NCBI GenBank assembly: GCA_014687725.1
Contig: GCA_014687725.1_4094.1
DNA: 64,000 bases
Source of the DNA: a phage
Strand: one strand, 5' to 3'
This document shows positions 895 to 46,069 of this stretch, one piece after another. Below the pieces are notes generated by a model. The model worked only from the letters and a program-made list of their open reading frames with translations, did no database searches and was not told the DNA's origin. Numbering within the stretch: the stretch's first letter is position 1; every line of letters starts with the position of its first letter. A program made the position numbers and the translations under genes.

Positions 895-900
895 AGAAAA

Positions 901-933
901 GGGTTGACTTCGGTCAGCCCTTTTTGCTATAAT
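901..933 (+). promoter_or_regulatory. bifunctional intrinsic terminator / sigma70-like promoter element
   Basis: GGGTTGAC-TTCG-GTCAGCCC hairpin (UUCG loop) + TTTTT; embedded -35 TTGACT, 18-nt spacer, -10 TATAAT; repeated at 2183, 3904, ~36811, ~40502, ~43778, ~46036. Confidence 0.6.
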
Positions 934-961
934 TATTTCATCAAGACGAGAGGATGAATAC

Positions 962-1477
962 ATGACACGCATTAACTTAGTACACGTTAAAGAACTTGCT
1001 GACCAACATCTGATGGCTGAATATCGTGAACTCCCACGTGTATTTGGTGCTGTACAAAAACACGTTCAAGCACGTAAGCGTGTACGTGATTTCAAAATTA
1101 ACAGTACTTATCTGTTAGGTTCAGGTCATGTGACATTCTTTTACGACAAGTTGCTGTACTTACAGAAGCGTCATATCGATATTGTTAACGAATGTTTGCG
1201 TCGTGGTATGAAGATTCAAAACACTGAAGTAAACGACATTAGCGGCTTCCCTGCTGAGTTTTGTAATGACTACGTACCAACGGAGTCAGAGATTAAAATG
1301 TCTCGTGATCGTTTGATTGAGAAGCTCCAGATGAAGCCTACGTGGTATAAGTTTACTGATGTTGAATGTCCACAGTACGTTAAAGATATGCAGAACGTAA
1401 GTAGTAAGAACGAATCTAGTACTGATATGTTCGACGAAATTGAAGAACAAATCAAAGATGAAATGAATAATTATTAA
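962..1477 (+). CDS. denV: pyrimidine-dimer DNA glycosylase / endonuclease V
   Basis: N-terminus [45 protein letters not shown] matches T4 endonuclease V from memory; extra acidic C-terminal tail. Confidence 0.88.
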
Positions 1478-1515
1478 AGGAAAGGGTTGACTTCGGTTAC
1501 ACAAAGGAACATAAC

Positions 1516-1710
1516 ATGTTATTAGTATATTCAAAGCGTTTCTGGATTTCTTTTATTGTACTATCGCTAATCGGCTTCGGTTTGAGTATACTCTTTTCGT
1601 GGGATGAATTGGGTACATGGTATTATGAAGTCCCGTGGTACATGAAGATAGCTCCTTGTTATGCGGCATTGTTCGTGTCATTCCTTATTGTTGTCTTCAG
1701 CGAGGATTAG
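1516..1710 (+). CDS. small membrane protein (64 aa)
   Basis: Two hydrophobic segments; ATG start. Confidence 0.45.
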   Translation: MLLVYSKRFWISFIVLSLIGFGLSILFSWDELGTWYYEVPWYMKIAPCYAALFVSFLIVVFSED

Positions 1711-1761
1711 TTGATGTAGTATGTGCTACACCAAAGTATTTGGATATTTTAGATATAAACA

Positions 1762-1790
1762 TTGACACCTGTTCTATCTTTCTGTATTAT
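1762..1790 (+). promoter_or_regulatory. sigma70-like promoter
   Basis: TTGACA, 17-nt spacer, TATTAT about 30 nt upstream of 1817 gene. Confidence 0.45.
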
Positions 1791-1816
1791 GTACATCACC
1801 AAATGAGGAATACAAC

Positions 1817-2176
1817 ATGGCATCTTTAAGTGAAATCGCAGAATACAACCCACTAACAATCTCAACAATTCAACGTACAAAAACTTTTTATTTCCGTCCT
1901 GCTGATGGATGGAAACGTGGAATGAATGGTGACTATCGAGTACTGGAAGATTCACTAATCGAGCGTATCAACTCTGAACTACAGAAGTATGAAGGTGTTA
2001 AAGTTGTGCGTTCAACTTCTCGTTATTTTGAGTACTACATTGAGTCTTCAACTGTAAATGAAAACTCATCATTCTCGGTGGACAACACTGATATTCTTCG
2101 TAATGCTGTTGGTCTTTTATGCAGGATTGCAGAAGAAATTGGATTAACTATCACCACAATGAGTGAGTTAGAATAA
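1817..2176 (+). CDS. hypothetical protein
   Basis: ATG with GAGGA upstream; followed by terminator/promoter element. Confidence 0.55.
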   Translation: MASLSEIAEYNPLTISTIQRTKTFYFRPADGWKRGMNGDYRVLEDSLIERINSELQKYEGVKVVRSTSRYFEYYIESSTVNENSSFSVDNTDILRNAVGLLCRIAEEIGLTITTMSELE

Positions 2177-2182
2177 CATAAA

Positions 2183-2215
2183 GGGTTGACTTCGGTCAGC
2201 CCTTTTTGCTATAAT
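2183..2215 (+). promoter_or_regulatory. terminator/promoter element (copy 2)
   Basis: Same hairpin + T-run + TATAAT as 901-933. Confidence 0.6.
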
Positions 2216-2241
2216 TATTTTATCGAAACGAGAGGTAATAC

Positions 2242-2475
2242 ATGAAACTATCTTTTATACGTTTAGCAGAATTCTTCGGTACTGATATTATTACTTTACA
2301 ACAAATTGCAGACAATACTTCATTAAGTACACAAGAAGTACTTGACTTGGATGTAATTAAGTGCGATAATACTTCCATCGATTACAAAGAAGGTCTTGTC
2401 GAAAAAGATAAGATTCAGGCTAAGATTAATGGTGCTGGACGGGTTCAGTACTGGAAAGGAGTTTTAAGTAAATGA
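2242..2475 (+). CDS. hypothetical protein
   Basis: ATG after GAGAGG; ATGA overlap with next gene. Confidence 0.5.
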   Translation: MKLSFIRLAEFFGTDIITLQQIADNTSLSTQEVLDLDVIKCDNTSIDYKEGLVEKDKIQAKINGAGRVQYWKGVLSK

Positions 2476-3896
2476 AAATTTATATTGATAAATTTGGAAC
2501 GACTTATGAATATTATGATTATACACATTATAATTCATATATACAAAAAAATCATAACCAAATGTCACCTTATTTGCATTATGAAGATTTAATGGAACTA
2601 TTCTCTAAAAATTTAAATTCTATTAAATTTATTGGTTTTAAAGATCCAACATGGAAAAGTTCACATACGCATGTGTATTTTGAATATGATAATATGGTAT
2701 ATGAACATTCAATATCAAATATCAAAACAAAATTCGCTGATCATAGATATAAACCAGGTAGAATATGTAGAACCTTGGAACAAATTATAAATGAGTCCAT
2801 TTATATATTTAAAAAATATGATAAATTTAATTTTCATAGCATTGCATCATTTAATGGAGCACGAACTATAATCAATTATACAATTGAAGGACGTGAAAGA
2901 ATATTTTCTATATCATTCAATTCATTAATAAAAGATTTTAAAGGGGGAAGCCCATGTTATTCATATGAAGAAGTAGAAAATATATCTATAAAAAAATTAA
3001 ATGAACATAATTTGAGATTTATCTCAATTAGTAAATTTAATGGTGTGTTTAGTTGTATTGAATATGAACAACCAACTCAGAAAGGAAAAAAATATGTTGA
3101 TTTTAATATATTAATCTATAATGAATGGAAAGGTAATCTACCGAATATAACTAATGAAGAGGTGAATAATCGAATTTCAGAAAAAATGAAAAAACTAAAT
3201 ATCAATGAATATGAAATTGTAGAATATAACAGTACTAGGAGCATGGTTGAATATACAGTTGATGATATTTCATATACAACTAGTTACGATAAGATTATGC
3301 ATCCAACTTGGAAAGGTAATCCAAGATATACAAAAGAAAGAATAATAAAATTGTCGAAAAAATATTGCAAGGGTAAAAAATTTCAATTTAATAAAATAAT
3401 TGGTAATGTTAAAGGAATTAATACTATCATTGAATTAGAACTTGAAAATGGTATGTTTATATATCCAAAATTTATACAATTAAAAGGAGGTTCTGACTTT
3501 AATACATCCACTGATGGTAAGATTTTAACAGAAATAATTTATCCTTTGTTCGACAATTATATCACACAAAAACGTTTTGAAAATTGTAGAAATCCTGAAA
3601 CTGGATACTTGTTGCCATATGATTTGTATGTTCCAGAATTTAATTTATTATTAGAAAAAGATGGAGTGCAACATTACAATCCAACAGCATATTTTAATAA
3701 AACATATGAATCATATTTGAAATTGAGAGAGAGAGATGAATTTAAAAACAAATATGCCATATCAAATGGTTATAATTTCATGCGAATAGCAGATTATGAA
3801 GATCATGAAAAAATATTGAAATCTTTCCTTAAACTCATTGAAGAGAATCCAGGAAAGCAAATTGTGCAGATCTATGGTGAAGTACAAATTATCTAA
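2472..3896 (+). CDS. AT-rich protein with C-terminal Vsr/DUF559-like (PD-(D/E)xK) nuclease motif
   Basis: C-terminus YDLYVPEFNLLLEKDGVQHY ... NGYNFMRIADYE resembles the DUF559/Vsr endonuclease pattern; markedly lower GC than neighbours. Confidence 0.55.
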   Translation: MKIYIDKFGTTYEYYDYTHYNSYIQKNHNQMSPYLHYEDLMELFSKNLNSIKFIGFKDPTWKSSHTHVYFEYDNMVYEHSISNIKTKFADHRYKPGRICRTLEQIINESIYIFKKYDKFNFHSIASFNGARTIINYTIEGRERIFSISFNSLIKDFKGGSPCYSYEEVENISIKKLNEHNLRFISISKFNGVFSCIEYEQPTQKGKKYVDFNILIYNEWKGNLPNITNEEVNNRISEKMKKLNINEYEIVEYNSTRSMVEYTVDDISYTTSYDKIMHPTWKGNPRYTKERIIKLSKKYCKGKKFQFNKIIGNVKGINTIIELELENGMFIYPKFIQLKGGSDFNTSTDGKILTEIIYPLFDNYITQKRFENCRNPETGYLLPYDLYVPEFNLLLEKDGVQHYNPTAYFNKTYESYLKLRERDEFKNKYAISNGYNFMRIADYEDHEKILKSFLKLIEENPGKQIVQIYGEVQII

Positions 3897-3903
3897 AACA
3901 AAA

Positions 3904-3936
3904 GGGTTGACTTCGGTCGGCCCTTTTTGCTATAAT
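3904..3936 (+). promoter_or_regulatory. terminator/promoter element (copy 3)
   Basis: GGGTTGACTTCGGTCGGCCC + TTTTT + TATAAT. Confidence 0.6.
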
Positions 3937-3964
3937 TATTTCATCAACTGATGAGGATAACGAA

Positions 3965-4735
3965 ATGACCAGAGAAGCACGTAGCATTCAAATCCAGAAA
4001 AACTTCAACTCCATGATGGTTGCTCTTGAGTGTTTGCTCGACGATAGCAGTACTGTAAAAAGTATGGTTGTCAGCGGTGCACCTGGTGTTGGTAAGACTT
4101 ACACCCTGTCACAACGCCTCCAGAAAGCTCATGACGCAGCAGAATGGAACGTAGCCACTATCAGTGGTAAGATGACTACTCTTGCTCTGTATGAAGTTCT
4201 GTACAAGAATCGTCACAGCACTAATGTATTAGTACTTGATGATATGGATAGCATCTTTGAATCAGAAGATGGTATGAACCTACTTAAAGCTGTTTTGGAT
4301 AGTGGTAAGCGTACTGTATCTTATATGACTAGCTCTAAGTACTTGAGCACTAACGGCATTCCTAATAGCTTTGATTTTAATGGTCGCATCGTATTCATTA
4401 CTAACAAAGATTTAGCGTTAGATGCTAAAGCTAAAACTAAAATGTCTGCTCATTATGCTGCTCTTATGTCTCGTTCTGTGTACGTGGATTTACAGATTCA
4501 GACTAAAAGTGATATCATGATTCATATTGAAAATGTAATGACTAAGACTAATATTCTTGCATCTAAAGGTGTTAACAGTAACGGCAGTAAAGCAATTCTG
4601 AACTGGATGTTAAAACATGAAGATAATCTTCGTGCACCATCCCTGCGTATGCCTTTGTTGATTTCAGCAGTATATAACAACAATCCGTATGATTGGGAAG
4701 AACAATGTGAAAACTTGTTCCTTGAGAAAATCTAA
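3965..4735 (+). CDS. P-loop NTPase (AAA-like ATPase)
   Basis: Walker A GAPGVGKT and Walker B VLVLDD. Confidence 0.7.
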   Translation: MTREARSIQIQKNFNSMMVALECLLDDSSTVKSMVVSGAPGVGKTYTLSQRLQKAHDAAEWNVATISGKMTTLALYEVLYKNRHSTNVLVLDDMDSIFESEDGMNLLKAVLDSGKRTVSYMTSSKYLSTNGIPNSFDFNGRIVFITNKDLALDAKAKTKMSAHYAALMSRSVYVDLQIQTKSDIMIHIENVMTKTNILASKGVNSNGSKAILNWMLKHEDNLRAPSLRMPLLISAVYNNNPYDWEEQCENLFLEKI

Positions 4736-4802
4736 TTACATATGTTGACAGTACTACCATCGTGTAGTACTATAACTTAATATTCACCACCGGAGATACG
4801 AT

Positions 4803-5144
4803 ATGCTTGAGTTTTTTAATTCAGATACAATGCTTGGTATCACGCTAATTTACATGTTTGTATTTTTGTGTTATCATTCAATTGTAATTAGTCTGTGGTA
4901 TTTTAAAAGGAAAATTGTTTTTAAATTGTATTCGGATGATAATGTAGTCTTAGTTTTATATAGTATTATCCAAGGTGGGTTTATTTTATTTGGTGTGATG
5001 ACATATGCGATTTACATGTTACAAATTGATAATACACCACACATTACACAATATCTTGTGTTTTCAGGTCTAATCGTGTGGTTGTTGGTGTGTAGCATGT
5101 ACTTTATTATTAAAGCTCGTGATAGAATTAAAGGGGATTTCTAA
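4803..5144 (+). CDS. small multipass membrane protein, tandem family M (1/8)
   Basis: 3-4 hydrophobic helices; WYFKRK motif; close paralog of next gene. Confidence 0.6.
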   Translation: MLEFFNSDTMLGITLIYMFVFLCYHSIVISLWYFKRKIVFKLYSDDNVVLVLYSIIQGGFILFGVMTYAIYMLQIDNTPHITQYLVFSGLIVWLLVCSMYFIIKARDRIKGDF

Positions 5145-5482
5145 TGTTAACATTCTTTAAGTCAGATACAATGCTTAGTATTACTTTGATTTATCTGTTT
5201 GGTTTTTTCTTTTATCATGCACTAGTTGTAGTACTATGGTATTTTAAAAAGAAAATTGTTTTTAAACTGTATCCAGTGAGGAATTCATCACTAGTTCTTT
5301 ACACACTTGTTCAAGGTTTGTTTGCAATTGTTGGTCTTATGGCACACTTAATTTATTGTGCTAATCCTCACTTGAACTCAATCTCACAATATATTGTATT
5401 CTTTGGGTTGTTCATTTGGTTAGTTGTATACTTAATCCATCTCATTATTCATGGTAGAGATAAAATTCGCGGAGACTTCTAA
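5144..5482 (+). CDS. small multipass membrane protein, family M (2/8)
   Basis: Near-identical N-terminus to 4803 gene; TAATG coupling. Confidence 0.6.
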   Translation: MLTFFKSDTMLSITLIYLFGFFFYHALVVVLWYFKKKIVFKLYPVRNSSLVLYTLVQGLFAIVGLMAHLIYCANPHLNSISQYIVFFGLFIWLVVYLIHLIIHGRDKIRGDF

Positions 5483-5829
5483 TGTTTGAAGCTTATCTTG
5501 AGTTTTTAAGGAGTAGTCCAGTTGCACATTCAATTGCAGGGATTATTCTAACAGGTTATGTAACATTTTGGGTAGTTATGTTTCTAGGATGGTATTTTAA
5601 ACGACAATTCTATAAGCGTAATGGTGAAGATTTTATGAATTCTTTCATTAATCAATCGTTGTTTGCATCAACATTGATTGCATGTATTGTGGCTGTTCTA
5701 GCCGGAAAAGCACTACCTGCTTTTTCAGTCGTTTATGGAACAATTGGTATGATATGTGTAGTTTTTCACTTGATCATTAAACTTTGTTGTGTTATGATTG
5801 ACCTTCGAAACAAGATACCGGAGGAATGA
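5482..5829 (+). CDS. small multipass membrane protein, family M (3/8)
   Basis: Hydrophobic, WYFKRQ motif; TAATG overlap. Confidence 0.55.
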   Translation: MFEAYLEFLRSSPVAHSIAGIILTGYVTFWVVMFLGWYFKRQFYKRNGEDFMNSFINQSLFASTLIACIVAVLAGKALPAFSVVYGTIGMICVVFHLIIKLCCVMIDLRNKIPEE

Positions 5830-6164
5830 TGGAATATTTTTTACACTTACTGCCGTGGTATATGAAAGTTAGTACCATGTACTATATTATTAGTGCTGGA
5901 TTCTACTTTCTGATGTGGTTCTTTAAACGACCAATTTCAGTATTCATCGCTGATAACATGCTGCAATTAAAATTACACGCATGGTTTGGTCTGGCGATGA
6001 TTATGCCTATTATTCACTACTCAATGATTAGTAGAGGTTTCCGTTCTAATGGTGAACCAATTGTATTAGTATTCTATTGGGGTTCAACTATTGCATATGT
6101 AAGTTTGTTGTTGTTCCCAGTCGTTCATAAGTTACGTGCTAAAGTTCCTGATGCGAGGTACTAA
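5826..6164 (+). CDS. small multipass membrane protein, family M (4/8)
   Basis: Hydrophobic, WFFKR motif; ATGA overlap. Confidence 0.55.
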   Translation: MMEYFLHLLPWYMKVSTMYYIISAGFYFLMWFFKRPISVFIADNMLQLKLHAWFGLAMIMPIIHYSMISRGFRSNGEPIVLVFYWGSTIAYVSLLLFPVVHKLRAKVPDARY

Positions 6165-6478
6165 TGGATATAGTAACATTGATTTACACGTTGTATTCAT
6201 TCTATTTCATTATGTGTTGGGTTGGATTTTTATTTGTACTCAAGATGTTTGATTATGTTGAAAAACAGATAAAAGAATTTTGTATTCCTTTTATCGGTTC
6301 AACCATTATTAGTGTTTCTTGTGTGTATTTTTTGGTTTTTGATCCACCAGATAACACTGCAATGATTGACTTGATGTTACTACCAACAACTGTTACTTTT
6401 TTATGTAGTCTGATGCCGCCGATTAGCCGTGGACTAACAGAATTTAGACGCAATCAAAAGCGTAAACGAGGGATGTAA
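6164..6478 (+). CDS. small multipass membrane protein, family M (5/8)
   Basis: Hydrophobic; C-terminal basic tail QKRKRG. Confidence 0.5.
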   Translation: MDIVTLIYTLYSFYFIMCWVGFLFVLKMFDYVEKQIKEFCIPFIGSTIISVSCVYFLVFDPPDNTAMIDLMLLPTTVTFLCSLMPPISRGLTEFRRNQKRKRGM

Positions 6479-6846
6479 TGGAAATTGCTCTTATTATCTT
6501 AACTGCTATGTTGTTTATTAGTACTGTGGTTATAATTGGTAAATTCTTTTGTGTATCATTTTTAGAAACGGTATACGATGAAATTGCTGATGATTATGAA
6601 CTACAAGCCGGATTTTTCATTACGTATTGGCTTAGTTTATTTTGTCTAGTCATTGCTTGGATTTTACATATCTTTAAATGGGGTATGGTAGACGGTGATC
6701 CTATTATGGCAATTATTGTTCTAGTGTTTGGTATCCTTGGTGGTGCAGTGCATAATCTAATGGTTATCTGGCAAACTGTTCAATATGTTTTGGTTCCCTA
6801 TTTCGAAAAGATGCACAGTACAATTAAAAAACGTAAACGAGGTTAG
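6478..6846 (+). CDS. small multipass membrane protein, family M (6/8)
   Basis: Hydrophobic; C-terminal KKRKRG like previous. Confidence 0.5.
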   Translation: MEIALIILTAMLFISTVVIIGKFFCVSFLETVYDEIADDYELQAGFFITYWLSLFCLVIAWILHIFKWGMVDGDPIMAIIVLVFGILGGAVHNLMVIWQTVQYVLVPYFEKMHSTIKKRKRG

Positions 6847-6847
6847 T

Positions 6848-7210
6848 ATGAACGGGATAGAATTATCTTTCGTTGGTCAATTACTAGTAATGGCGTATAC
6901 ATTTATCTTCTCACTGAATGCATTCGTGTGCATTGGGAAGTACTTCCATAAGCGACCATTATCAAATATATATGATGTAATCCAAAAGAGATATAGTCCA
7001 GCATATACTGTGTTGGGTACAGTATTCAATTTTGGTTTTATTGTATTAATAATTGGACTGTTCACATCCTCTTTGAATACAATAACCTTCGGTCTTATGA
7101 TATGTTCATTGGTATTAGCCGTAATTATATGTTGTTTAGTACTGCACCTTGTGGTACTATTGTATATAAAGATCTCTGAAATCCACCAACGTTTGGGTAT
7201 GAGGAAATAA
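6848..7210 (+). CDS. small multipass membrane protein, family M (7/8)
   Basis: Start moved from track 6785 to in-frame ATG 6848 right after previous stop. Confidence 0.5.
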   Translation: MNGIELSFVGQLLVMAYTFIFSLNAFVCIGKYFHKRPLSNIYDVIQKRYSPAYTVLGTVFNFGFIVLIIGLFTSSLNTITFGLMICSLVLAVIICCLVLHLVVLLYIKISEIHQRLGMRK

Positions 7211-7211
7211 T

Positions 7212-7583
7212 ATGAGTTACCGTGAGATATTTTCCATTATTTCAATTATTATGTTCAGTACTGGAACACTGGTATGGTTATTATACTTCTTCTGTATTAA
7301 TCCAGTGTATAATATGTTATGTAATATTAAATCAAGTGCCGGATATATCACTTTTATGGTCTTTATGGGATATTATTGTCTAAGCATTTTAGGTGTTGTT
7401 TTGGTTGTTATATTTGATGTGGGACCAAATAGTGATGGTATGGAAATACATGAATTAATAACCATGTTTGGATGTATGATACCAACAGCACTACTGTTTG
7501 TAGCTACTGGTAGTGGATTGATAAAATTATATAATTATTTAAAATCCATTCATAATTCCATTCATAATAAGCGTATGTCATAA
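7212..7583 (+). CDS. small multipass membrane protein, family M (8/8)
   Basis: Hydrophobic; GAGGAAATAATATG start context. Confidence 0.5.
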   Translation: MSYREIFSIISIIMFSTGTLVWLLYFFCINPVYNMLCNIKSSAGYITFMVFMGYYCLSILGVVLVVIFDVGPNSDGMEIHELITMFGCMIPTALLFVATGSGLIKLYNYLKSIHNSIHNKRMS

Positions 7584-7587
7584 TAAA

Positions 7588-7613
7588 AATCCAGTACTAT
7601 TAAGTACTGGATT
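7588..7613. terminator. perfect 11-bp inverted repeat hairpin AATCCAGTACT-atta-AGTACTGGATT
   Basis: Perfect palindrome between membrane array and next gene; no T-run, so terminator assignment tentative. Confidence 0.35.
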
Positions 7614-7624
7614 AATAAGGAGTT

Positions 7625-8287
7625 ATGATGAAAACAAAATTAGGTTTGTTTTATAAAAATTATTTCGTTAAACAGCGTAAATTTATAAAAAAATATTTCT
7701 CTGGTGAGAAGTCTAGTCCTATAATTTTTAAAAGACCAAGTTATAATACTTACTTAGCTGGTGCTAAACAGTCTAAGAAATTTATTACTCTTTTAAATAA
7801 AAACAAAATTAAAGCTTCTTATGTTGAAACGAGAAGAAACTCATCAATAACTCCTGGTGATTTTATTGAGTACGGATGTTTCAATATTAAGTACAATGAT
7901 AATACATACTTTATGGATATTGATTGTAATACATCCAATCTTTTTAACATTGTAGTAAATCCATTAAAACAATATAATGTTTATGGTGATTCTATTATCA
8001 AATTAATCAAAAACAAAGATAGCTTTGATTTTGAAATAAATGTTTTAGATGATAATTTTGACGAAGTACCAGTAAACCCTGAAATCTGTGATATTTTAAA
8101 CAGTTTAAAAGGTAGTACCTACAATATATCATCTGATTTAATGTTTCAGTACTCATTAATCCATAAAGATATTGAAAAGTATATTGAATGCTCCAAAATT
8201 TTGAATTATCTTTACGATGAATTTAAAAAGAGTTCTAAAATAACTGCATACACTTTGTACAATATTCCTAAAATGGTGAATCTTTGA
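7625..8287 (+). CDS. hypothetical AT-rich protein carrying family-C signature (LMFQYSLIHKD)
   Basis: ATG after AGGAG; motif matches EEYFQxSLVxD family in 54-64 kb. Confidence 0.5.
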   Translation: MMKTKLGLFYKNYFVKQRKFIKKYFSGEKSSPIIFKRPSYNTYLAGAKQSKKFITLLNKNKIKASYVETRRNSSITPGDFIEYGCFNIKYNDNTYFMDIDCNTSNLFNIVVNPLKQYNVYGDSIIKLIKNKDSFDFEINVLDDNFDEVPVNPEICDILNSLKGSTYNISSDLMFQYSLIHKDIEKYIECSKILNYLYDEFKKSSKITAYTLYNIPKMVNL

Positions 8288-36800: not shown

Positions 36801-36810
36801 AAAAAAAAGT

Positions 36811-38185: not shown

Positions 38186-38191
38186 GAATAT

Positions 38192-38819: not shown

Positions 38820-39077
38820 ATGGCTGTAGGATTCACGAAAGATGGGGCCGAGCAAGACGAGATTAACGCAGTGATTCAGGCCGCTGTTAACCACGCTAGA
38901 ACGCAAATTAACGCACAAATAGAATCACTGATACATTGCCTCGACTGCGGCGATATAATCCCTGAGAAACGACGCCAGGCCGTTAAGGGATGTAAGTACT
39001 GCATAACTTGCCAGGAGGATCATGATAGTACTTTTAAACGTCCCCCGCGTAATTGTTGGCATAGATCTATGAGATAA
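38820..39077 (+). CDS. TraR/DksA-family C4 zinc-finger protein
   Basis: CLDCGDIIPEKRRQAVKGCKYCITCQ: CxxC-17-CxxC spacing typical of TraR/DksA. Confidence 0.7.
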   Translation: MAVGFTKDGAEQDEINAVIQAAVNHARTQINAQIESLIHCLDCGDIIPEKRRQAVKGCKYCITCQEDHDSTFKRPPRNCWHRSMR

Positions 39078-39140
39078 AAAGTATTGACAGTACTGAAAGA
39101 TAGTGTATAATATTTTATATCTTAACTGAGGATTGAAATC

Positions 39141-39497
39141 ATGGGAATACAACATATCACGCGTACTACTGACAATGGCGAGATCACTGGCTATCAAGTA
39201 CAGGGCAAAGTAGCACAATTGCAGTACTGGTTTGTTAAACGTGGAATCATTGCACCGGATCTTGATTATGACCGTGTAGCGTTTATTGATTCTCTTTATG
39301 TTGATCCTGATAGTCGGGGCAATGGTGAAGGTAACGAATTAATGAATGCCTTTATTGATGCCGCCGATGATTCAGATTGTATCATTTTAGAATGCGATAC
39401 GGGAGAAGATAACGCCTTTAATCTTAAAGAATGGTACGAAGGTTTCGGATTCGAGGTACTGATCGATAGTGAATATCCTATCATGATTTTATCATAG
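39141..39497 (+). CDS. GNAT-like N-acetyltransferase (small)
   Basis: VAFIDSLYVDPDSRGNGEGNELMNAF ... NAFNLKEWYEGFGF resembles GNAT motifs A/B. Confidence 0.5.
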   Translation: MGIQHITRTTDNGEITGYQVQGKVAQLQYWFVKRGIIAPDLDYDRVAFIDSLYVDPDSRGNGEGNELMNAFIDAADDSDCIILECDTGEDNAFNLKEWYEGFGFEVLIDSEYPIMILS

Positions 39498-39575
39498 TAC
39501 TTGCATTTAGTTTTCAGTACTGTTATAGTACTTACATCAAGGGGAAACATCTTCCCCTACTAAGAGGAAATAAAA

Positions 39576-39764
39576 ATGGAAAACTTATCAAGTATTTTAG
39601 TACAAGATGATTTCGGTAATCCTGGAAGTGCTATCATTGTTCGGGGTAATAAAGCAACATTTGTTATTGCTGGTGGACCTGTACAGCGTAGCATTAAAAA
39701 TAATGCTGTTACCATTAATAATGTACGCTATCGCTTAGATAAAGAATTGATTCATAAACTTTAA
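39576..39764 (+). CDS. hypothetical early protein
   Basis: Promoter + hairpin + AAGAGGAAATAAAAATG. Confidence 0.5.
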   Translation: MENLSSILVQDDFGNPGSAIIVRGNKATFVIAGGPVQRSIKNNAVTINNVRYRLDKELIHKL

Positions 39765-39848
39765 AAAGTATTTGACAATAGATTATAGTACTGTATAATA
39801 AGTTACATGAAGGGGTGAAATGATTCTCCCCACTAAGAGGAAAGAAAA

Positions 39849-40061
39849 ATGCAAGGTCAACTAATCGTTCGTAAATGGTCTGATACTAACGAAAAACCGT
39901 GGGATGTACAATACATCGGACCGGATGGGGTATCACGTTATCAGCCTGGCGTAACGCATAGTACTGAGCAATTCGCAAACGCTCACCGCGAACGCCTGTT
40001 AGAATCCATGAAACAGGGATTCTGTGAAAAATTCATTCAAGATCATTGGCTGAAAGATTAA
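39849..40061 (+). CDS. hypothetical early protein
   Basis: Promoter + hairpin + SD. Confidence 0.55.
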   Translation: MQGQLIVRKWSDTNEKPWDVQYIGPDGVSRYQPGVTHSTEQFANAHRERLLESMKQGFCEKFIQDHWLKD

Positions 40062-40078
40062 TATAAGGAGTACAGCTT

Positions 40079-40171
40079 ATGCAAATGAATCCGATGATTA
40101 TTGTTTTAGCTGTACTTATGATCATTCATGCAATAGTAGAAGTATTAACGCAATCAGGAGTAATAAAATGA
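40079..40171 (+). CDS. very small hydrophobic peptide (30 aa)
   Basis: AAGGAG 8 nt upstream; ATGA-coupled to next ORF; speculative. Confidence 0.3.
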   Translation: MQMNPMIIVLAVLMIIHAIVEVLTQSGVIK

Positions 40172-40341
40172 TTCAAGTAGAATTATCAGTACTGAAAGAT
40201 CTGTTTTATCGGTTAGGTACTACTGGCGAGTATCCTAAAAGTGATACCGCAAAACTTTTTGTATCACTCGACTTATGGCAACGCGAACAATTAGTAATGT
40301 CCTGGCGTAAAGGTAAAGCAGATAGCGAGGTGAAAGCATGA
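40168..40341 (+). CDS. small protein (57 aa)
   Basis: Below track cutoff; ATGA coupling both sides. Confidence 0.4.
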   Translation: MIQVELSVLKDLFYRLGTTGEYPKSDTAKLFVSLDLWQREQLVMSWRKGKADSEVKA

Positions 40342-40487
40342 AAGAATTCTTATTCGAAGTAGTGTTTCAAGGTGTCGGTAGTAACCAACTGATTCGCTCA
40401 AGTGGTTACAATGTTAACCAGGCATGGAATAACATTAAACAAATGTACCCGAACGCTATCACCTATCGCAACCCGAAACAAGTTTAA
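40338..40487 (+). CDS. small protein (49 aa)
   Basis: Below track cutoff; followed by terminator/promoter hairpin. Confidence 0.4.
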   Translation: MKEFLFEVVFQGVGSNQLIRSSGYNVNQAWNNIKQMYPNAITYRNPKQV

Positions 40488-40501
40488 AAATAATTGAAAA
40501 A

Positions 40502-40534
40502 GGGATTGACTCCGGTCAGTCCCTTTGCTATTAT
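40502..40534 (+). promoter_or_regulatory. terminator/promoter element (copy 5)
   Basis: GGGATTGAC-TCCG-GTCAGTCCC, TTTG, TTGACT/17 nt/TATTAT. Confidence 0.55.
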
Positions 40535-40635
40535 ATACGCATAGAAACAAATCAGCCCACAGGGTGCATAAATGTATCTATTGTTTGCTGGTGGCTAGTA
40601 CTATCAAGTACTGAAAACTATTTTTAAAAAAGTAC

Positions 40636-40663
40636 TTGCATTGTACTTAGAATCAAGTATAAT
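40636..40663 (+). promoter_or_regulatory. early promoter P1 of tandem pair
   Basis: TTGCAT, 16 nt, TATAAT; upstream A/T-rich tract and TCAGTACTGA. Confidence 0.5.
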
Positions 40664-40751
40664 GTTTTACATCAGGACGGGGAACGAAACAAGTAACCCC
40701 GTTAAGTAGTCCAGGAGTAAGACATAAGAAAACCTCCCCTGATAAAATAGT

Positions 40752-40779
40752 TTGACAATAGAAAGTAAACGAGTATAAT
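40752..40779 (+). promoter_or_regulatory. early promoter P2 of tandem pair
   Basis: TTGACA, 16 nt, TATAAT; separated from P1 by a ~60-nt structured leader, duplicated at 30360-30560. Confidence 0.5.
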
Positions 40780-40812
40780 ACTTACATCAACCACTGATAA
40801 GGAAACATTAAA

Positions 40813-41088
40813 ATGCGGATTCTACTGACAGCTAACGAAATCGAACAAGTACTGACTACTAACCTGGAAGACTGGAAACGTGAAGCAGATATCCAGGCGG
40901 TTCAACGGCTTAACGATGAGTTAACGCCGGATGACTTAAGCAAGATTGTAGATCCTCAATTCTACGAAGATATCCACGACACCGCGTTAAGCGTCGAGGA
41001 TGTACTAGATAAGCACTACATTGATATTGATTTGCAGGTTTACGGTCGTAAAAACTTTATCACTATTCACGACATTTACAATAATTAA
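40813..41088 (+). CDS. hypothetical acidic protein
   Basis: ATG after AAGGAAACATTAAA. Confidence 0.55.
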   Translation: MRILLTANEIEQVLTTNLEDWKREADIQAVQRLNDELTPDDLSKIVDPQFYEDIHDTALSVEDVLDKHYIDIDLQVYGRKNFITIHDIYNN

Positions 41089-41174
41089 GTATTGACAAAG
41101 TATCTTAGTACTGTATAATAGTTTACATCGAGAGGGGGAATGGTTCCCCTCCTAACAAAGAGAGAGAAATAAAA

Positions 41175-41357
41175 ATGGCTAAATGCACTATCTGTAAGAA
41201 AGAAATCGTATTAGTTCCAAGTGCCCGTGAACGTGCCGCTCGGTTCGGTGGCAAACCGTCAGACTATACAAAAATGTTTACTGTCCATGCAGCTTGCCAG
41301 GTAGCAAAACGTTCACAAGAAAGCGTAGAATTAATGCGTAAACTTTCCAAAAAATAA
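41175..41357 (+). CDS. hypothetical small protein
   Basis: Promoter + hairpin + GAGAGAGAAATAAAAATG. Confidence 0.5.
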   Translation: MAKCTICKKEIVLVPSARERAARFGGKPSDYTKMFTVHAACQVAKRSQESVELMRKLSKK

Positions 41358-41445
41358 GTATTGACAAAGTATCTTAGTACTGTATAATAGTTTACATCAA
41401 GTGAGGGGAAACGGTTCCCCTCCTAACAAAGAGAGAGAAATAAAA

Positions 41446-41769
41446 ATGGCTATGATCCTTGCCCAGAAAGTAGAACTGAAAATTGTAACCTCCTTTGACA
41501 TTAAAGTTAATCGGTGGACTGATTCACACGGCAATACTTACCACTCTTGCTACGTGTCTGCGTTAATTGGTGATCGTTGGGAAGACCTGGGACATGAAAC
41601 CTTTACATACGGTTACGGCACACAAGGCGAATACACGGGCTTGGAGATCATTAAAGAAACCGTTATAGGTTTCAACCCGAAAGAAACAGTTATTCACCGC
41701 ATCGAGGAAGAGATCAACAAAGAAATAACAGTTCGATACTACGATGTAAAACGTAAGAAAGATATGTAA
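41446..41769 (+). CDS. hypothetical protein, paralog of 34893-35237
   Basis: Start moved to MAMILAQ; duplicated promoter/leader with 41175 gene. Confidence 0.55.
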   Translation: MAMILAQKVELKIVTSFDIKVNRWTDSHGNTYHSCYVSALIGDRWEDLGHETFTYGYGTQGEYTGLEIIKETVIGFNPKETVIHRIEEEINKEITVRYYDVKRKKDM

Positions 41770-41864
41770 TAGAATCCATTTAAAGTACTATTTGACATTG
41801 CCCAGATAGTACTTTATAATAGACTCTAACTTGTAGTACTAACTCAACTAATAGGATGTATACC

Positions 41865-42260
41865 ATGATTACTAAATTCTACGCTACCCGTGAAGCTGCC
41901 CGTATTGTTGCACGCGAGGAAGGAGCAGCATTTAAAGACATGGGCAAAGATGCACCGAAAGGCCAACGCTGGGCCGTACAGTTCAAAGAGATCTCTGATA
42001 TTGTGAATTCACCTGAGCCAGTACTAACAGCAGCAGAACTAAAACGAGCGGATTTACTGGCGTCAATACTTGATGCACAAGATGAGTTTATCGCTGATTC
42101 TGATATCAAAGTACAGACAAACCATACCGCTTGGACTCACGCGGATCACCTGGCAAACCTGAAGCGTCCAAGTGAACTGGTACGCAACCAGAAAGAGATC
42201 CGACACGACCGTAAGGGTAATCGTGTAACAGTATACAGTAAACGCCGCCAGGTTATCTAA
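41865..42260 (+). CDS. hypothetical protein, paralog of 29549-29815
   Basis: Start moved to second ATG (AGGA upstream). Confidence 0.55.
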   Translation: MITKFYATREAARIVAREEGAAFKDMGKDAPKGQRWAVQFKEISDIVNSPEPVLTAAELKRADLLASILDAQDEFIADSDIKVQTNHTAWTHADHLANLKRPSELVRNQKEIRHDRKGNRVTVYSKRRQVI

Positions 42261-42282
42261 TAACTTGCAGTACTAACAACAC

Positions 42283-42307
42283 GGCGGGATCAGTTCCCGC
42301 CTTTTTT
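42283..42307 (+). terminator. intrinsic terminator
   Basis: GGCGGGA-tcagt-TCCCGCC + TTTTTT. Confidence 0.65.
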
Positions 42308-42321
42308 ATAGGACAAACAAA

Positions 42322-42576
42322 ATGATTAAGGTTCAACTATATAAAGATAATATCTTGCGGGTACACTATAAAGCCCCTCAGAGAATCATCACAAAGGCCG
42401 TACAGCTTGCTAATGAGTTTATTAATGGTAACCTATTACCAAGGAAGTTAAGCAACGGAAAACTGCGTGTAATCGATGTAGACACTAACAACAGAATAGT
42501 AATTGAGAACACAGGAAAGATAAACCTATATGAACACCAACAATATAATAAGAAAATAAAACTAATATCACGTTGA
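42322..42576 (+). CDS. hypothetical protein
   Basis: ATG after GGACAAACAAA. Confidence 0.5.
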   Translation: MIKVQLYKDNILRVHYKAPQRIITKAVQLANEFINGNLLPRKLSNGKLRVIDVDTNNRIVIENTGKINLYEHQQYNKKIKLISR

Positions 42577-42629
42577 CAGTACTCAATTGTTTTAGTACTA
42601 TGTACATATACCAACACGGGAGAAACAAA

Positions 42630-42848
42630 ATGAAATTATCTAAAATCGAAAAGAAAACTATTGATGAAGCAGTTAAGCACGGTTATACCTTTCGTAATGA
42701 TTCACATTTTACCAATTTTCAACAAGGGTATCGTACTATTAAAAAACTCATTGACAAAGGTTTATTAGTTGAAGTCAATAACGGCAATGGTATTGAGTAT
42801 CAACCAACACAAGACGCATTTTATTTTAAGAAATATAATATTATCTAA
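42630..42848 (+). CDS. hypothetical protein, tandem duplicate pair member
   Basis: Promoter TTGACA/17/TACTAT and leader duplicated at 42849-42905. Confidence 0.5.
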   Translation: MKLSKIEKKTIDEAVKHGYTFRNDSHFTNFQQGYRTIKKLIDKGLLVEVNNGNGIEYQPTQDAFYFKKYNII

Positions 42849-42905
42849 TTGACAGTACTCAAATGTTTTAGTACTATATGTACATACCAACACGGGGAAA
42901 ACAAA

Positions 42906-43148
42906 ATGATTACTTTAGAAAAACGTATCAAAGAAACTACATCGCTGGTGGAACTGTTAACAGTACTGAAATGCCGTACTACTCGGTTTAGTACACCGGA
43001 CTTTATTAATATGGTTGATGTTAACGGTCGTTATCGCATTGCAGTAGAACAAGGAACAGCGAAAGTATTCAGTACTAAAAACACTAAGGAAGTGATTCAT
43101 GCTGTAAGTGTTAAAAAAGTAGTTGCCATTGATAGTAAAGTACTGTAA
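42906..43148 (+). CDS. hypothetical protein, tandem duplicate pair member
   Basis: Same promoter/leader as previous gene. Confidence 0.5.
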   Translation: MITLEKRIKETTSLVELLTVLKCRTTRFSTPDFINMVDVNGRYRIAVEQGTAKVFSTKNTKEVIHAVSVKKVVAIDSKVL

Positions 43149-43179
43149 GATAGTTTCATTAACTCAAGGAGAACATGCA

Positions 43180-43764
43180 ATGCGTAATTATACTAAATTC
43201 ATCCGTACCCTGTCAGAAATGGAAACCAACAAAGAGATCCTTTCAGCTTGTCGGTTAGCTGGTCTGGAGATCATCGGTGCGGGTTCTTCCCGTATTGTAT
43301 TCGCTTTAAATGATCGGTTAGTGATCAAGGTCGCGAATTGTGATGCGGGTGTAGAACAAAATGAAACTGAATGTAAGGTATGGAATTTTTTAGATTATGA
43401 CCGCCCTCAATTGAAACAGTACTTTGCAAAGGTGCATATGCATTTATGCGATCCTGATAATATGTTTATCGTTATGGATCGGTTGAGTACTGCAAGTAAA
43501 GGCAGTGTAAAGCACGTAAACGCGTGCAATGAATTAAAGTACAATATTAAACGTAATGCCATTGAACGCCAGCACCGCTTTGCTGATGCACTACAACACG
43601 TTGATGATACATTATCAACACTAACGATAAGAGATATCAGAAAACAGAATATCGGCCAGGATCGTAATGGCCTTATTAAAGTACTTGATTACGGTTTAAC
43701 CCGCAATATCTGGAATCAGTACTATAAAAAGCGTGATGTAGAAGCAAGTAAGGTAACACGATAA
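43180..43764 (+). CDS. protein-kinase-like protein (atypical Ser/Thr kinase fold)
   Basis: IIGAGSSRIVF (Gly-rich loop), LVIKV (beta3 Lys), RDIRKQNIG (catalytic loop), KVLDYG (DFG-like); AAGGAG SD. Confidence 0.55.
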   Translation: MRNYTKFIRTLSEMETNKEILSACRLAGLEIIGAGSSRIVFALNDRLVIKVANCDAGVEQNETECKVWNFLDYDRPQLKQYFAKVHMHLCDPDNMFIVMDRLSTASKGSVKHVNACNELKYNIKRNAIERQHRFADALQHVDDTLSTLTIRDIRKQNIGQDRNGLIKVLDYGLTRNIWNQYYKKRDVEASKVTR

Positions 43765-43777
43765 AAAAGATTAAAAA

Positions 43778-43812
43778 AGGGATTGACTCCGGTCAGTCCC
43801 TTTGCTATTATA
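43778..43812 (+). promoter_or_regulatory. terminator/promoter element (copy 6)
   Basis: GGGATTGACTCCGGTCAGTCCC + TTTGCTATTAT. Confidence 0.55.
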
Positions 43813-43984
43813 TATTCATTGAGAGATAACTCACTGACCCATAGGGTGCGGAAGTGTATCTATTATATAAGTATTCAGTACTGAAAACTATTTTAAAAAA
43901 GTACTTGCAATGTACTTAGAATCAAGTATAATGTTTTACATAGAGAGGGGGAAATGGTTCTCCCTGGTAATAAGGAATAAAATC

Positions 43985-44206
43985 ATGACTACAATGACTT
44001 GCATTTACGCTTCCAATCTTCTGAATGATGCGGCCTTTAATGTTGATTCAGAATATCAATGTTATCGGGATGAAAATAAAAAAGTTTTTGTAGTTGATAA
44101 TAATGGTTTCCATATTGAATTACAATCCGGTTTCACTGGTGTTGATGGTAAATCAGTGTGGGGCGTACAGGATGATAAAGGCACATATCATTTTAAACGT
44201 AATTAA
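43985..44206 (+). CDS. hypothetical early protein
   Basis: Start moved to MTTMTC downstream of leader hairpin. Confidence 0.5.
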   Translation: MTTMTCIYASNLLNDAAFNVDSEYQCYRDENKKVFVVDNNGFHIELQSGFTGVDGKSVWGVQDDKGTYHFKRN

Positions 44207-44290
44207 GTATTGACAAAGTATATCAGTACTGTATAATAGTTTACATCAAGGGGAGAATAGTTCTCCCCGATACTAAAAGGAAACAAAATT

Positions 44291-44563
44291 ATGTCCAGCT
44301 ACTCCGCTACTATGATCATTAAAGATATGAACGGTAATCCTACTTCTGCTGGTGGATCATTTGGAAACATTAATTTAGATGGTCGGTTATCCATGCAATC
44401 AGCCATCGATGCAGCGAAAGAAGTTTTTAAGAATGAATGTACTGTTAGTAAGCTGGATTATATGGGATTCGCTATCGAGAAAACTAATCGTTTTGTGAAC
44501 TACAAAAATCCACTGATGATTGATACTAACCTGAAAGCTAACGAAGTGGGGTACTTATTATGA
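44291..44563 (+). CDS. hypothetical early protein
   Basis: Promoter + hairpin + AAAGGAAACAAAATTATG. Confidence 0.55.
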   Translation: MSSYSATMIIKDMNGNPTSAGGSFGNINLDGRLSMQSAIDAAKEVFKNECTVSKLDYMGFAIEKTNRFVNYKNPLMIDTNLKANEVGYLL

Positions 44564-44751
44564 CAGTAGAAGAAGTTAAAAAAGTACTGGCAGTACTACG
44601 CTATCATAATCATTGCAAGGTGAAGAATGATCCTGATTATGTTGATTCATCCCTGGAGGAAGACACATTAAACGCAATAAGCCATATGCAAACATTAGCA
44701 AAGCGTATGACCGAAAAGAATAGACCGGACTATATCGGAAATAAAATTTAA
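44560..44751 (+). CDS. hypothetical early protein
   Basis: ATGA overlap with previous. Confidence 0.5.
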   Translation: MTVEEVKKVLAVLRYHNHCKVKNDPDYVDSSLEEDTLNAISHMQTLAKRMTEKNRPDYIGNKI

Positions 44752-44837
44752 AAAGTACTTGCATTGTAGTTAGATTAACGTATAATGTTTTACATAGAGC
44801 GGGGGAACTATTCCCCCGCCAGTCCAGGAGATACACC

Positions 44838-45101
44838 ATGAACACTATCGAAATCACTATCAATGCACACGTATACGACAACGTAGTACTGCAAACTACT
44901 ATGACCGCTAATGATACCAGTACTTTGCGGAATACTGTTATTAGTGCCGTATGTGCCGCTATCGGTGATGTCGCCCTGGAAAATGCAGAACACATCAACA
45001 ACGGTTTCACTATGTGCAAACGTGATAACGCAAAACATATCATCGTAGAAGGTTACGGCGGTGTAGAATATAATCTTTATATGAAAAAAGTACTTGCATA
45101 A
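44838..45101 (+). CDS. hypothetical early protein
   Basis: Promoter + GCGGGGGAA-cta-TTCCCCCGC hairpin + AGGAG. Confidence 0.55.
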   Translation: MNTIEITINAHVYDNVVLQTTMTANDTSTLRNTVISAVCAAIGDVALENAEHINNGFTMCKRDNAKHIIVEGYGGVEYNLYMKKVLA

Positions 45102-45168
45102 TAACTAAAACAAAGTATAATGTTTTGCATAGGGGGAGATATCCTCCCCCACTAAAAGGAGTAATAAA

Positions 45169-45393
45169 ATGGCTAACTTTGATGAACTGATGCGGGAAGT
45201 AGCTAACCTGGCAGAAGAGAAGAAATCATTCGATTCTATCTATAACACCGCTCACCGTGATTCAGTACTGGCATGTACTCAGGATCAAAAAGATGAACTA
45301 ATCGCCACATATCATGAAGCATGGAAGTACTACCGCCAATGGGAGAAAGAAGAAAGCGAGTCTACCATCAACGGCATCAATAATCTAATCTAA
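45169..45393 (+). CDS. hypothetical early protein
   Basis: Promoter + hairpin + AAAGGAGTAATAAAATG. Confidence 0.55.
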   Translation: MANFDELMREVANLAEEKKSFDSIYNTAHRDSVLACTQDQKDELIATYHEAWKYYRQWEKEESESTINGINNLI

Positions 45394-45469
45394 AAGTTTT
45401 ATTTCAGTACTATTGACATAGCTTGATAGTACTGATGTAATAACTTTACTAACTACAAGGGGAAACATA

Positions 45470-45727
45470 ATGGAACAGTTCACACAATATCGGGTAAATC
45501 CTCAAGCTATGGCCTACGTAGAAGACCATAAAACGTTACCAGTACTAACACCAATTAAAGGCCATATCTATCGTGCAATGTCATGGAATACGGCCCAGGA
45601 TGGATATACTACCGCTGGCGTGGGTATGTATTGCGGGAATGGTGAATGGTTTGATCCAAATAATCCGGTAGCCATTGACAGTACTGAAAAAATGAAATGG
45701 GCCGACTACATCGAAGATATTTCATAA
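45470..45727 (+). CDS. hypothetical early protein
   Basis: Type-2 promoter; ATG after AAGGGGAAACATA. Confidence 0.55.
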   Translation: MEQFTQYRVNPQAMAYVEDHKTLPVLTPIKGHIYRAMSWNTAQDGYTTAGVGMYCGNGEWFDPNNPVAIDSTEKMKWADYIEDIS

Positions 45728-45816
45728 AACTATTTGACAGTACTAACCAGTAATGTATAATGTTTTACATAGAGCGGGGGAATAGTTCTCCCGCCAATAG
45801 TTTGGAGTAAAACATT

Positions 45817-46017
45817 ATGTCTATCGCTATCGCCCTGGTTGAAGTACTGAAAGAAGCTAAAGCCAACCTTATCGATGTACAGATTAAGGAATTACAAAAT
45901 GGTTTAATCGGCTGTACTTGTACCGCTGGTGGAGCGGCAGACTATCGGGAATTCGAATCACTTGAATCGATGGTCCGTTATCTTACCATGATCGTAGAAG
46001 ATTGGAGAATCATCTAA
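45817..46017 (+). CDS. hypothetical early protein
   Basis: Promoter + hairpin + TGGAGTAAAACATTATG. Confidence 0.5.
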   Translation: MSIAIALVEVLKEAKANLIDVQIKELQNGLIGCTCTAGGAADYREFESLESMVRYLTMIVEDWRII

Positions 46018-46035
46018 CAAAAAAGAATAAAAAAA

Positions 46036-46069
46036 GGGATTGACTCCGGTCAGTCCCTTTGCTATTATA
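46036..46069 (+). promoter_or_regulatory. terminator/promoter element (copy 7)
   Basis: GGGATTGACTCCGGTCAGTCCC + TTTGCTATTAT. Confidence 0.55.

Follow-up and report, generated by a model that had tools for sequence, protein, structure and literature searches.

Can a single repeated sequence of about 45 nucleotides (nt) both end one transcription unit of a phage and begin the next? The question is raised by a 64,000-nt stretch of phage DNA (NCBI GenBank assembly GCA_014687725.1, contig GCA_014687725.1_4094.1; hereafter, the window), in which seven near-identical hairpin elements lie between genes on the + strand. An initial annotation, made from the sequence alone, had described each of them as a terminator hairpin with the −35 hexamer of a promoter inside its 5′ arm, and had added that the hairpin might occlude this hexamer. 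The window comes from an Asteriusvirus jumbo coliphage (121Q/PBECO4/G17-like): with positions 600–4800 and 36000–47000 as queries, it matched the records of 121Q, PBECO4, G17, slurp01, and ELP-22, whose genomes are about 350–380 kb, with 93–99% identity where aligned. We estimate at roughly 0.8 the probability that the elements are compact promoter/terminator cassettes of the type called promoter-early stem-loops (PeSLs), which would stop the upstream unit and start the next one. The comparative sequence evidence described below strongly supports the terminator/promoter part of the initial proposal, whereas the occlusion of the −35 hexamer found no support.

Occurrence and anatomy of the elements

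A pattern search with GGGWTGACYYCGGTCAGYCC, allowing up to three mismatches, yielded seven matches, all on the + strand, at positions 901, 2183, 3904, 36810, 40503, 43780, and 46037. No match was obtained in 100 dinucleotide-preserving shuffles. A hairpin scan with an independent script (stem of at least 7 bp, loop of 3–6 nt, and TTGAC inside the 5′ arm) returned exactly these seven sites. The seven GGGWTGAC-YYCG-GTCAGYCC elements of the initial annotation were thus recovered by both searches, with its approximate positions 36811, 40502, 43778, and 46036 being off by 1–2 nt. The degenerate copy that it placed at 1484 is real and consists of GGGTTGACTTCGGT followed by unrelated sequence. This half-element relic (1484–1497, + strand) comprises the 5′ arm and loop only, and has no 3′ arm, T-run, or −10 box.

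The whole cassette spans about 45 nt, and its parts follow one another in the same order: an A-tract, GGG/TGG/GGA, TTGAC, the loop TTCG/TCCG, GTCAG, CCC/CCA/TCC, a T-tract, G(C), and TATAAT/TATTAT. The copy at 3904 has GTCGG instead of GTCAG in the 3′ arm. The stem is 8–12 bp long, and the loop, TTCG in four of the seven copies and TCCG in three, is closed by a C-G pair in every case, which makes it a C(UNCG)G tetraloop in 7/7. TTGAC and the first loop base together form the −35 hexamer, and the end of the T-tract forms the TG of an extended −10 promoter. A consensus scan located TTGACT in the 5′ arm and TATAAT/TATTAT 17–18 nt downstream in all seven copies, in agreement with the initial annotation.

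The copies fall into two groups. In group 1 (901, 2183, and 3904), TTGACT is followed after 18 nt by TATAAT, TG is located at −15/−14, 11 of 12 promoter positions match the consensus, and five T come straight after the stem. In group 2 (36810, 40503, 43780, and 46037), TTGACT is followed after 17 nt by TATTAT, TG is present, 10 of 12 positions match, and the stem is followed by TTTT or CTTT and then GCTATTAT, i.e., by 3–4 U, GC, and a U-rich stretch. All copies have the features of a sigma-70 extended −10 promoter (−35 box with at least 5/6 matches, spacer of 17 ± 1 nt, TGn, −10 box with at least 5/6 matches, and a predicted purine start about 7 nt downstream) and the layout of an intrinsic terminator (GC-rich stem, short loop, then U-tract), which is weaker in group 2.

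The elements are consistently intergenic. The stop codon of a co-directional + strand open reading frame (ORF) precedes every copy by 7–20 nt (7/7). In group 1, a Shine-Dalgarno (SD) sequence and an ATG follow, with the ATG 59–62 nt past the hairpin start. In group 2, the next ORF begins 130–310 nt past the hairpin start, and the gap contains a conserved untranslated stretch and then, in three of the four copies (36810, 40503, and 43780), a second strong promoter. The genes flanking the seven elements are mostly small hypothetical ORFs.

All seven elements were mapped on the + strand. Element 1 (893–933, group 1) is composed of the A-tract 893–900, the hairpin 901–920 (GGGTTGAC-TTCG-GTCAGCCC), the −35 hexamer TTGACT 904–909, five T at 921–925, TG at 925–926, and the −10 box TATAAT 928–933; its predicted start is at about A940, and the ATG of denV is at 962. 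In elements 2 (2176–2215) and 3 (3897–3936) of the same group, the hairpins occupy 2183–2202 and 3904–3923, the −35 hexamers 2186–2191 and 3907–3912, and the TATAAT boxes 2210–2215 and 3931–3936, respectively. Their upstream ORFs end at 2176 and 3896, their downstream ATGs are at 2242 and 3965, and element 3 has a T·G wobble at pair 5–16. The group-2 elements 4, 5, 6, and 7 span 36802–36841, 40495–40534, 43772–43811, and 46029–46068, with hairpins at 36810–36829, 40503–40522, 43780–43799, and 46037–46056, −35 hexamers at 36813–36818, 40506–40511, 43783–43788, and 46040–46045, and TATTAT boxes at 36836–36841, 40529–40534, 43806–43811, and 46063–46068, respectively. The outer pairs are TGG..CCA in element 4 and GGA..TCC in element 5, which has the loop TCCG and an extended stem at 40499–40526. 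The ORFs upstream of elements 4, 6, and 7 end at 36800, 43764, and 46017, respectively.

Folding of the hairpin and putative termination sites of the early region

Direct folding of the + strand RNA gave −11 to −12.7 kcal/mol for the core hairpin and −16 to −19.5 kcal/mol with the A/U extension. The group-1 hairpins, which were folded directly, had been missed by the built-in terminator scan because the stem was extended into the A/T tracts, leaving too few T. The hairpin of the reverse strand was weaker by about 6 kcal/mol, since a nearly universal U·G pair becomes an A·C mismatch there.

This strand asymmetry bears on the possibility that the elements are promoters in which the inverted repeat is bound, as a DNA operator, by a dimeric regulator from the phage or its host, with no RNA hairpin involved. 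The dyad overlaps the −35 hexamer, a frequent repressor site, and symmetric changes would keep a DNA palindrome as well as an RNA stem. However, the near-universal T·G makes the DNA dyad imperfect and leaves the + strand RNA stem intact, and the UNCG/GNRA loops, the flanking A/T tracts, and the position right after stop codons are hallmarks of terminators. As identical hairpins also terminate genes in unrelated bacteria (see below), we regard an operator as very unlikely.

On the + strand of the 36–47 kb region, there are ten perfect 12/12 sigma-70 promoters, and the strong terminator-like sites are only the four elements and one hairpin at 42283. Because the elements are the sole strong terminator-like sites of this strand apart from 42283, the early region would be cut into blocks of 2.3–3.7 kb, with transcription restarted at once.

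Conservation in phages and comparison with bacterial genomes

BLAST with a 53-nt element found 746 places in 183 phage records. The positive phages included Asteriusvirus, RaK2/K64-1, CBB, Serratia BF, KVP40-like vibriophages, and Aeromonas phage 65-like phages, as well as Cronobacter and Pectobacterium phages of about 149 kb and Brochothrix A9. Near-identical cassettes are present in phages of Escherichia, Klebsiella, Vibrio, Aeromonas, Cronobacter, Pectobacterium, and Brochothrix. Asteriusvirus genome records had 5–9 places each, and the 64-kb window has seven copies. In IMG/VR, an exact-core scan recovered 42 copies from 30 loci.

Among 92 distinct copies from many phages, both halves of the cassette are conserved. 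GTCAG forms the 3′ arm in 82 of them, and this conservation is telling because the arm lies in the promoter spacer, where sigma-70 has no sequence requirement. The −10 box (at least 5/6 matches, spacer of 16–19 nt) was found in 79/92 copies, compared with 4/92 at a control offset, and the TG of the extended −10 in 78/92. A C-A-T start context is conserved 6–8 nt past the −10 box, with 1.5 bits at A. The loop is more variable: TTCG occurs in 55 copies and TCCG in 6 (61/92 together), and the remainder have GNRA or other loops, with the stem kept. Since related phages have these other loops on the same stem, the UUCG loop named in the initial annotation does not define the cassette.

Covariation was analyzed in 74 distinct copies. 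Standard pairs filled 99.3% of the pair cells, three pairs had double compensatory changes, and none of 500 shuffles reached the observed values; because the set had been pre-filtered on two outer pairs and includes many orthologues, these statistics overstate the independence of the copies.

In 185,579 bacterial species genomes, the same hairpin was found in 18 copies, as an ordinary terminator. The −10 box was present in 2/18 and TG in 0/18 of these copies, compared with 29/34 and 30/34, respectively, in viral contigs. Because the hairpin occurs in bacteria without the promoter half, it is by itself a generic good terminator, and the composite was observed almost only in the viral contigs. 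Identical hairpins, GGTTGACTTCGGTCAGCC with a T-run, were seen in Acinetobacter, Exiguobacterium, Vibrio, Bdellovibrio, and Bacteroidetes genomes (L045–L062), apparently as plain terminators. The bacterial copies suggest an independent origin of an especially stable stem.

Public annotations treat the sites in the same way. In the GenBank record of G17, the counterparts of elements 1–3 and 5–7 are annotated as ARNold terminators, with energies of −17.0 kcal for group 1 and −13.0 kcal for group 2; this comparison covered two stretches with six sites, and the counterpart of 36810 lies outside both. Table S8 of the CBB paper gives GGGTTGACTTCGGTCAGCCC... three times as a terminator, and the sequence appears nowhere else in the CBB supplements. 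Only the terminator half is annotated in these two sources. A literature search with the exact element sequence retrieved no paper, and the literature searched yielded no account of the elements as promoters.

These annotations, together with the plain terminators of Acinetobacter, Exiguobacterium, Vibrio, and other genomes, would be accounted for if the elements were intrinsic terminators only and their promoter likeness were incidental in AT-rich intergenic DNA. The retention of TGn and the −10 box at a spacer of 17–18 nt in most phage copies, far above the frequencies at the control offset and in bacteria, the conserved C-A-T start context, and the SD sequence and ATG at a fixed distance downstream argue against an incidental likeness, and a terminator-only function is improbable in our judgment.

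A perfectly palindromic variant, AGGTTGACTTCGGTCAACCT with seven T, is located at position 103696 of the 121Q record (L032:722), after a structural-protein gene, and has no −10 box. Next to it comes TAAATATAAAA, a sequence similar to a late promoter of the T4 type. This variant looks like a terminator-only member of the family or a late-promoter version of the cassette.

Relationship to PeSLs and other known systems

PeSLs have been described in the T4-type phages RB49/phi1, PST/T4, and nt-1/KVP40 (Arbiol et al. 2010, PMC2839356; Comeau et al. 2014, PMC4122927). Their promoter and terminator activities were demonstrated by lacZ fusions, and one of the five subclasses described has a stem-loop overlapping the −35 box (PMC2839356). 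Recombination between PeSL copies shuffles ORFan cassettes, and one crossover was mapped to the loop (PMC2839356, PMC4122927).

The present elements resemble PeSLs in being intergenic and combining a sigma-70 consensus promoter with an AT-rich tract upstream of it and a stable stem-loop of the terminator type; in flanking small ORFs in variable regions; and in having indel junctions between close relatives within the element, loop included, together with degraded half elements. The nt-1/KVP40 stem consensus, A3-4 G3-loop-C3 T3-4, fits the element; the same cassette is carried by KVP40-type genomes and occurs in Schizotequatrovirus phi-pp2 and VH7D. In the window, we found the promoter, the stem-loop, the intergenic site near small variable ORFs, and the junctions, the last at group 1 only. 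Membership in the T4-type phages (Straboviridae) is the PeSL feature that does not apply, the host phage being an Asteriusvirus. The elements also differ from PeSLs in their single rigid architecture, with the −35 always in the 5′ arm and the extended −10 provided by the T-tract, as opposed to variable stem positions, and in their low copy number (7 in 64 kb) beside a commoner promoter-plus-leader-hairpin cassette. Because every PeSL feature that can be tested on sequence was found, the elements are not a new kind of element and would represent a PeSL-type example in a new phage group. By analogy with the reporter-tested PeSLs, we infer that termination and initiation would actually occur at these sites.

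Intrinsic terminators with C(UUCG)G loops are said to have been known from T4 intercistronic hairpins since the work of Tuerk et al. in 1988. The elements share with canonical terminators of this class the GC-clamped stem, the UNCG loop closed by C-G, the U-tract, and the position after a stop codon, and differ from them in that the promoter hexamer fixes the stem and the U-tract doubles as spacer and TG.

Class II terminators of T7 are reported to act as TGn promoters, and promoter/terminator coupling is reported for bacteria (bioRxiv 10.64898/2026.02.12.705533; 10.64898/2026.08.19.745784). The T7 signals, as presented there, are similar to the elements in that Escherichia coli RNA polymerase can use a single short sequence both as a terminator and as an extended −10 promoter, and differ in being hairpin-less. 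In the papers on the jumbo phages PA5oct and N1M2, promoters are treated apart from terminators, and nothing is said on their overlap.

Recombination at the elements

Eight relatives were compared over about 8 kb around the group-1 elements. UE-S1 lacks window positions 2225–3893, which contain a small ORF and an ORF of 474 amino acids (aa), and has in their place a single chimeric element, whose left flank is that of element 2183 and whose leader is that of element 3904. The 474-aa ORF is annotated as a homing endonuclease in relatives; a Pfam search yielded nothing for it. fEgEco12 lacks 1498–3900 and has a complete element there, with the left flank of the 1484 relic and the right side of element 3904. 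An insertion of about 2.4 kb relative to fEgEco12 has its left junction at the relic, and the full element of fEgEco12 at the relic site indicates that the relic arose by a crossover just after the loop.

Further events were found at elements 2183 and 901. JP4 has an additional ORF at element 2183, with a degraded copy on the left of this ORF. In JP4 and fEgEco12, an HNH gene is inserted between the upstream stop codon and element 901, and ELP-22 and SHEFM2K have only an HNH remnant of about 90 nt (L033:3297–3390 and L034:2409–2500). JNE01 has three additional ORFs at the HNH insertion point by element 901, and a replacement in 121Q ends at 3900. Altogether, the junction falls within 15 nt of an element in about seven distinct events and elsewhere in 5–6, with the element zones making up about 4% of the 8 kb compared. 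With nearly identical repeats of about 45 nt, the cassettes would thus offer sites for homologous crossover. The HNH endonuclease gene (L036:3308–3721 and L037:3308–3721) is free-standing and lies exactly between the stop codon and element 901.

The junctions inside elements, the chimeric and half elements, the near-identical cassettes in phages of seven host genera from Escherichia to Brochothrix, and the mini-circles reported for PeSLs (PMC2839356) could all be expected of a sequence that primarily serves recombination or mobility and spreads gene cassettes, perhaps via DNA cruciforms or mini-circles, with its transcription signals being secondary. However, terminator or promoter consensus explains every conserved position, no target duplications or associated recombinase were seen, the group-2 copies are positionally stable, and such crossovers are expected of any 45-nt repeat under homologous recombination. 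Homologous recombination is itself to be expected of large lytic phages. A primary role in mobility thus has little probability.

Proposed mechanism and its strength

In the mechanism that we propose for the PeSL-type cassette, the RNA of the upstream transcript would fold into a stem of 8–12 bp with a UNCG tetraloop (GGGUUGAC-UUCG-GUCAGCCC), followed by the U-tract. The hairpin and U-tract would act as an intrinsic terminator and leave a nuclease-resistant 3′ end. At the DNA level, the 5′ arm would provide the −35 hexamer TTGACT and the T-tract the TG, with TATAAT/TATTAT at a spacer of 17–18 nt; with these signals so placed, host sigma-70 polymerase would start a transcript about 7 nt past the −10 box, at the conserved C-A-T. 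The new start would lie about 12 nt downstream of the 3′ end of the old transcript in the T-tract. Because the upstream transcript would be released and the downstream unit would have its own promoter, that unit would be insulated from read-through. The U·G position would deny the reverse strand both a good hairpin and a TTGAC −35 box. In addition, the near-identical cassettes of about 45 nt may act as crossover points for the insertion, deletion, and swap of gene modules between related phages.

The occlusion put forward in the initial annotation would turn this cassette into a switch, in which a hairpin or cruciform hides the −35 hexamer and makes termination and initiation mutually exclusive. 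The hexamer is physically within the inverted repeat, but the RNA hairpin is part of the upstream transcript and leaves the duplex promoter untouched, and, judging from the folding, a cruciform with short arms and T·G/A·C mismatches should be unfavourable. The sequence data call for no such device, and we consider a switch extremely improbable.

A further possibility is that the overlap is a terminate-and-restart device, and that the cassette has been spread or reinvented across myoviruses of distant hosts, among them phage A9 of the Gram-positive host Brochothrix. The polymerase would release the transcript in the T-tract while already on the promoter spacer and −10 box, stay on the DNA, be recaptured by sigma-70, and reinitiate in cis. 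Polymerase has been shown to remain on DNA after termination (PMC6978322). If this were true, the cassette would cut the message and reset the unit without loss of polymerase flux. We consider this extension unlikely.

In addition to the limited independence of the copies used for covariation, several points weigh against the interpretation of the elements as PeSL-type cassettes. In the literature searched, we found no mapped 5′ or 3′ RNA ends for this phage or its close relatives and no transcriptome of this phage group. Group-2 copies have only CTTT or TTTT before GC; this short T-run means that they are possibly leaky terminators and that the efficiency of termination is uncertain. Termination may also be weakened by pairing of the A-tract with the U-tract, and the 18-nt spacer of group 1 is slightly above the optimal length. 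As for recombination, the group-2 elements are unchanged in place in five relatives and are not junctions, and the indels near them use other repeated promoter cassettes; given this positional stability, the recombination role is evident only for group 1. Homing-endonuclease genes are present in the variable cassettes and could account for some junctions, so that part of the mosaicism near the elements may be due to homing endonucleases.

Other repeated sites and promoter cassettes

An invariant 12-mer, CCCAYNGGGTGC, occurs 10 times in the window, compared with 0.47 expected. It is found on the + strand at 30217, 36868, 38550, 40556, 43838, and 46090, and on the − strand at 28136, 28352, 30285, and 32268. 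The copies at 36868–36879, 40556–40567, 43838–43849, and 46090–46101 lie in the untranslated stretch after elements 4–7; the 12-mer thus follows 4/4 group-2 elements and none of group 1. Every copy lies about 30 nt past the −10 box of a promoter of the sigma-70 type, and the 12-mer is kept in relatives and metagenomic RaK2-like contigs. It has the appearance of a site that a protein would recognize by sequence on DNA or nascent RNA, perhaps nut/boxB-like. The conserved stretch of about 60 nt past the group-2 promoters was considered as a structured small RNA and rejected: RNAalifold of 19 copies gave an invariant 4-bp hairpin with no compensatory pairs.

A second cassette family, with 27 copies of AAAAAGTACTTGCA-N17-GTATAATGTTTTACAT, is located on the + strand between 27401 and 46646. 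A GGGGRAA..TTCYCCC leader hairpin comes next in 19 copies of a longer repeat family (D2), with an SD sequence in at least some of them. SHEFM2K lacks 41182–41348, between two copies of this cassette, and further junctions were found at 39762 and 44205–44303. Since indels between relatives fall at the second cassettes, these behave like PeSLs too.

A third promoter class, TATTGACA-N10-AGTACTGGCATAAT, has eight copies on the + strand, at 4733, 30161, 34535, 34829, 37689, 38491, 45411, and 46180. The palindrome AGTACT recurs in or beside many promoters of the region, and several promoters of the three classes have the common initial transcribed sequence (T)ACATC(A/G)AGAC. Convergent promoter pairs with no ORF between them were observed at 30160–30340 and also at 28090–28400. 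In the former, the + strand promoter at 30162 faces a − strand promoter at about 30335 over about 170 bp, each with a CCCAYNGGGTGC site downstream. Convergent promoters of this kind would yield overlapping antisense RNAs, and the same arrangement was seen in metagenomic relatives (L011 and L017).

Layout of the window

Positions 1–8000 of the window form a + strand block around denV (endonuclease V, 962–1477), and the 8–23 kb region contains a minus-strand array of RCC1-like paralogues. This array (9493–22471) consists of about 10 paralogous genes encoding about 380–440 aa each, at a spacing of about 1.2 kb. The two members tested gave matches to RCC1-like repeat domains (Pfam WD40_RLD and RCC1_2). 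The paralogues show strong conservation of their starts (N-terminus MLPFGRM...) and ribosome-binding regions. From 26 kb on, the window is a very promoter-dense early region with small + strand ORFs, which adjoins the terminal repeat in one relative. At 48321–53889 on the + strand, about 10 small tandem ORFs (about 70–90 aa) have a common internal segment corresponding to repeat families D9 and D12 (consensus ...TTAGGAACAAACTATCAAGA...) and form a paralogous small-protein family.

Rfam searches of the whole window at the gathering threshold and of 27–47.5 kb at E ≤ 1 gave no relevant family. A weak Trp_leader match at 33760–33824 on the + strand (29.9 bits compared with a gathering score of 41, E = 0.016) is probably due to chance. 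No tRNA or tmRNA genes were found in the window.

Implications for Asteriusvirus and related phages

If the elements function as proposed, PeSL-type cassettes would extend from the T4-type phages to the 350-kb RaK2/121Q jumbo phage group, and would provide a simple annotation rule for early transcription units in genomes of this group. With a terminator and a strong extended −10 promoter in about 45 nt, the cassette would be a compact natural insulator that could serve synthetic biology. Because near-identical cassettes occur in phages of distant hosts, they also lend themselves to asking whether regulatory DNA has converged or spread horizontally. Among Asteriusvirus isolates, crossovers at the cassettes would explain part of the mosaic gene content.

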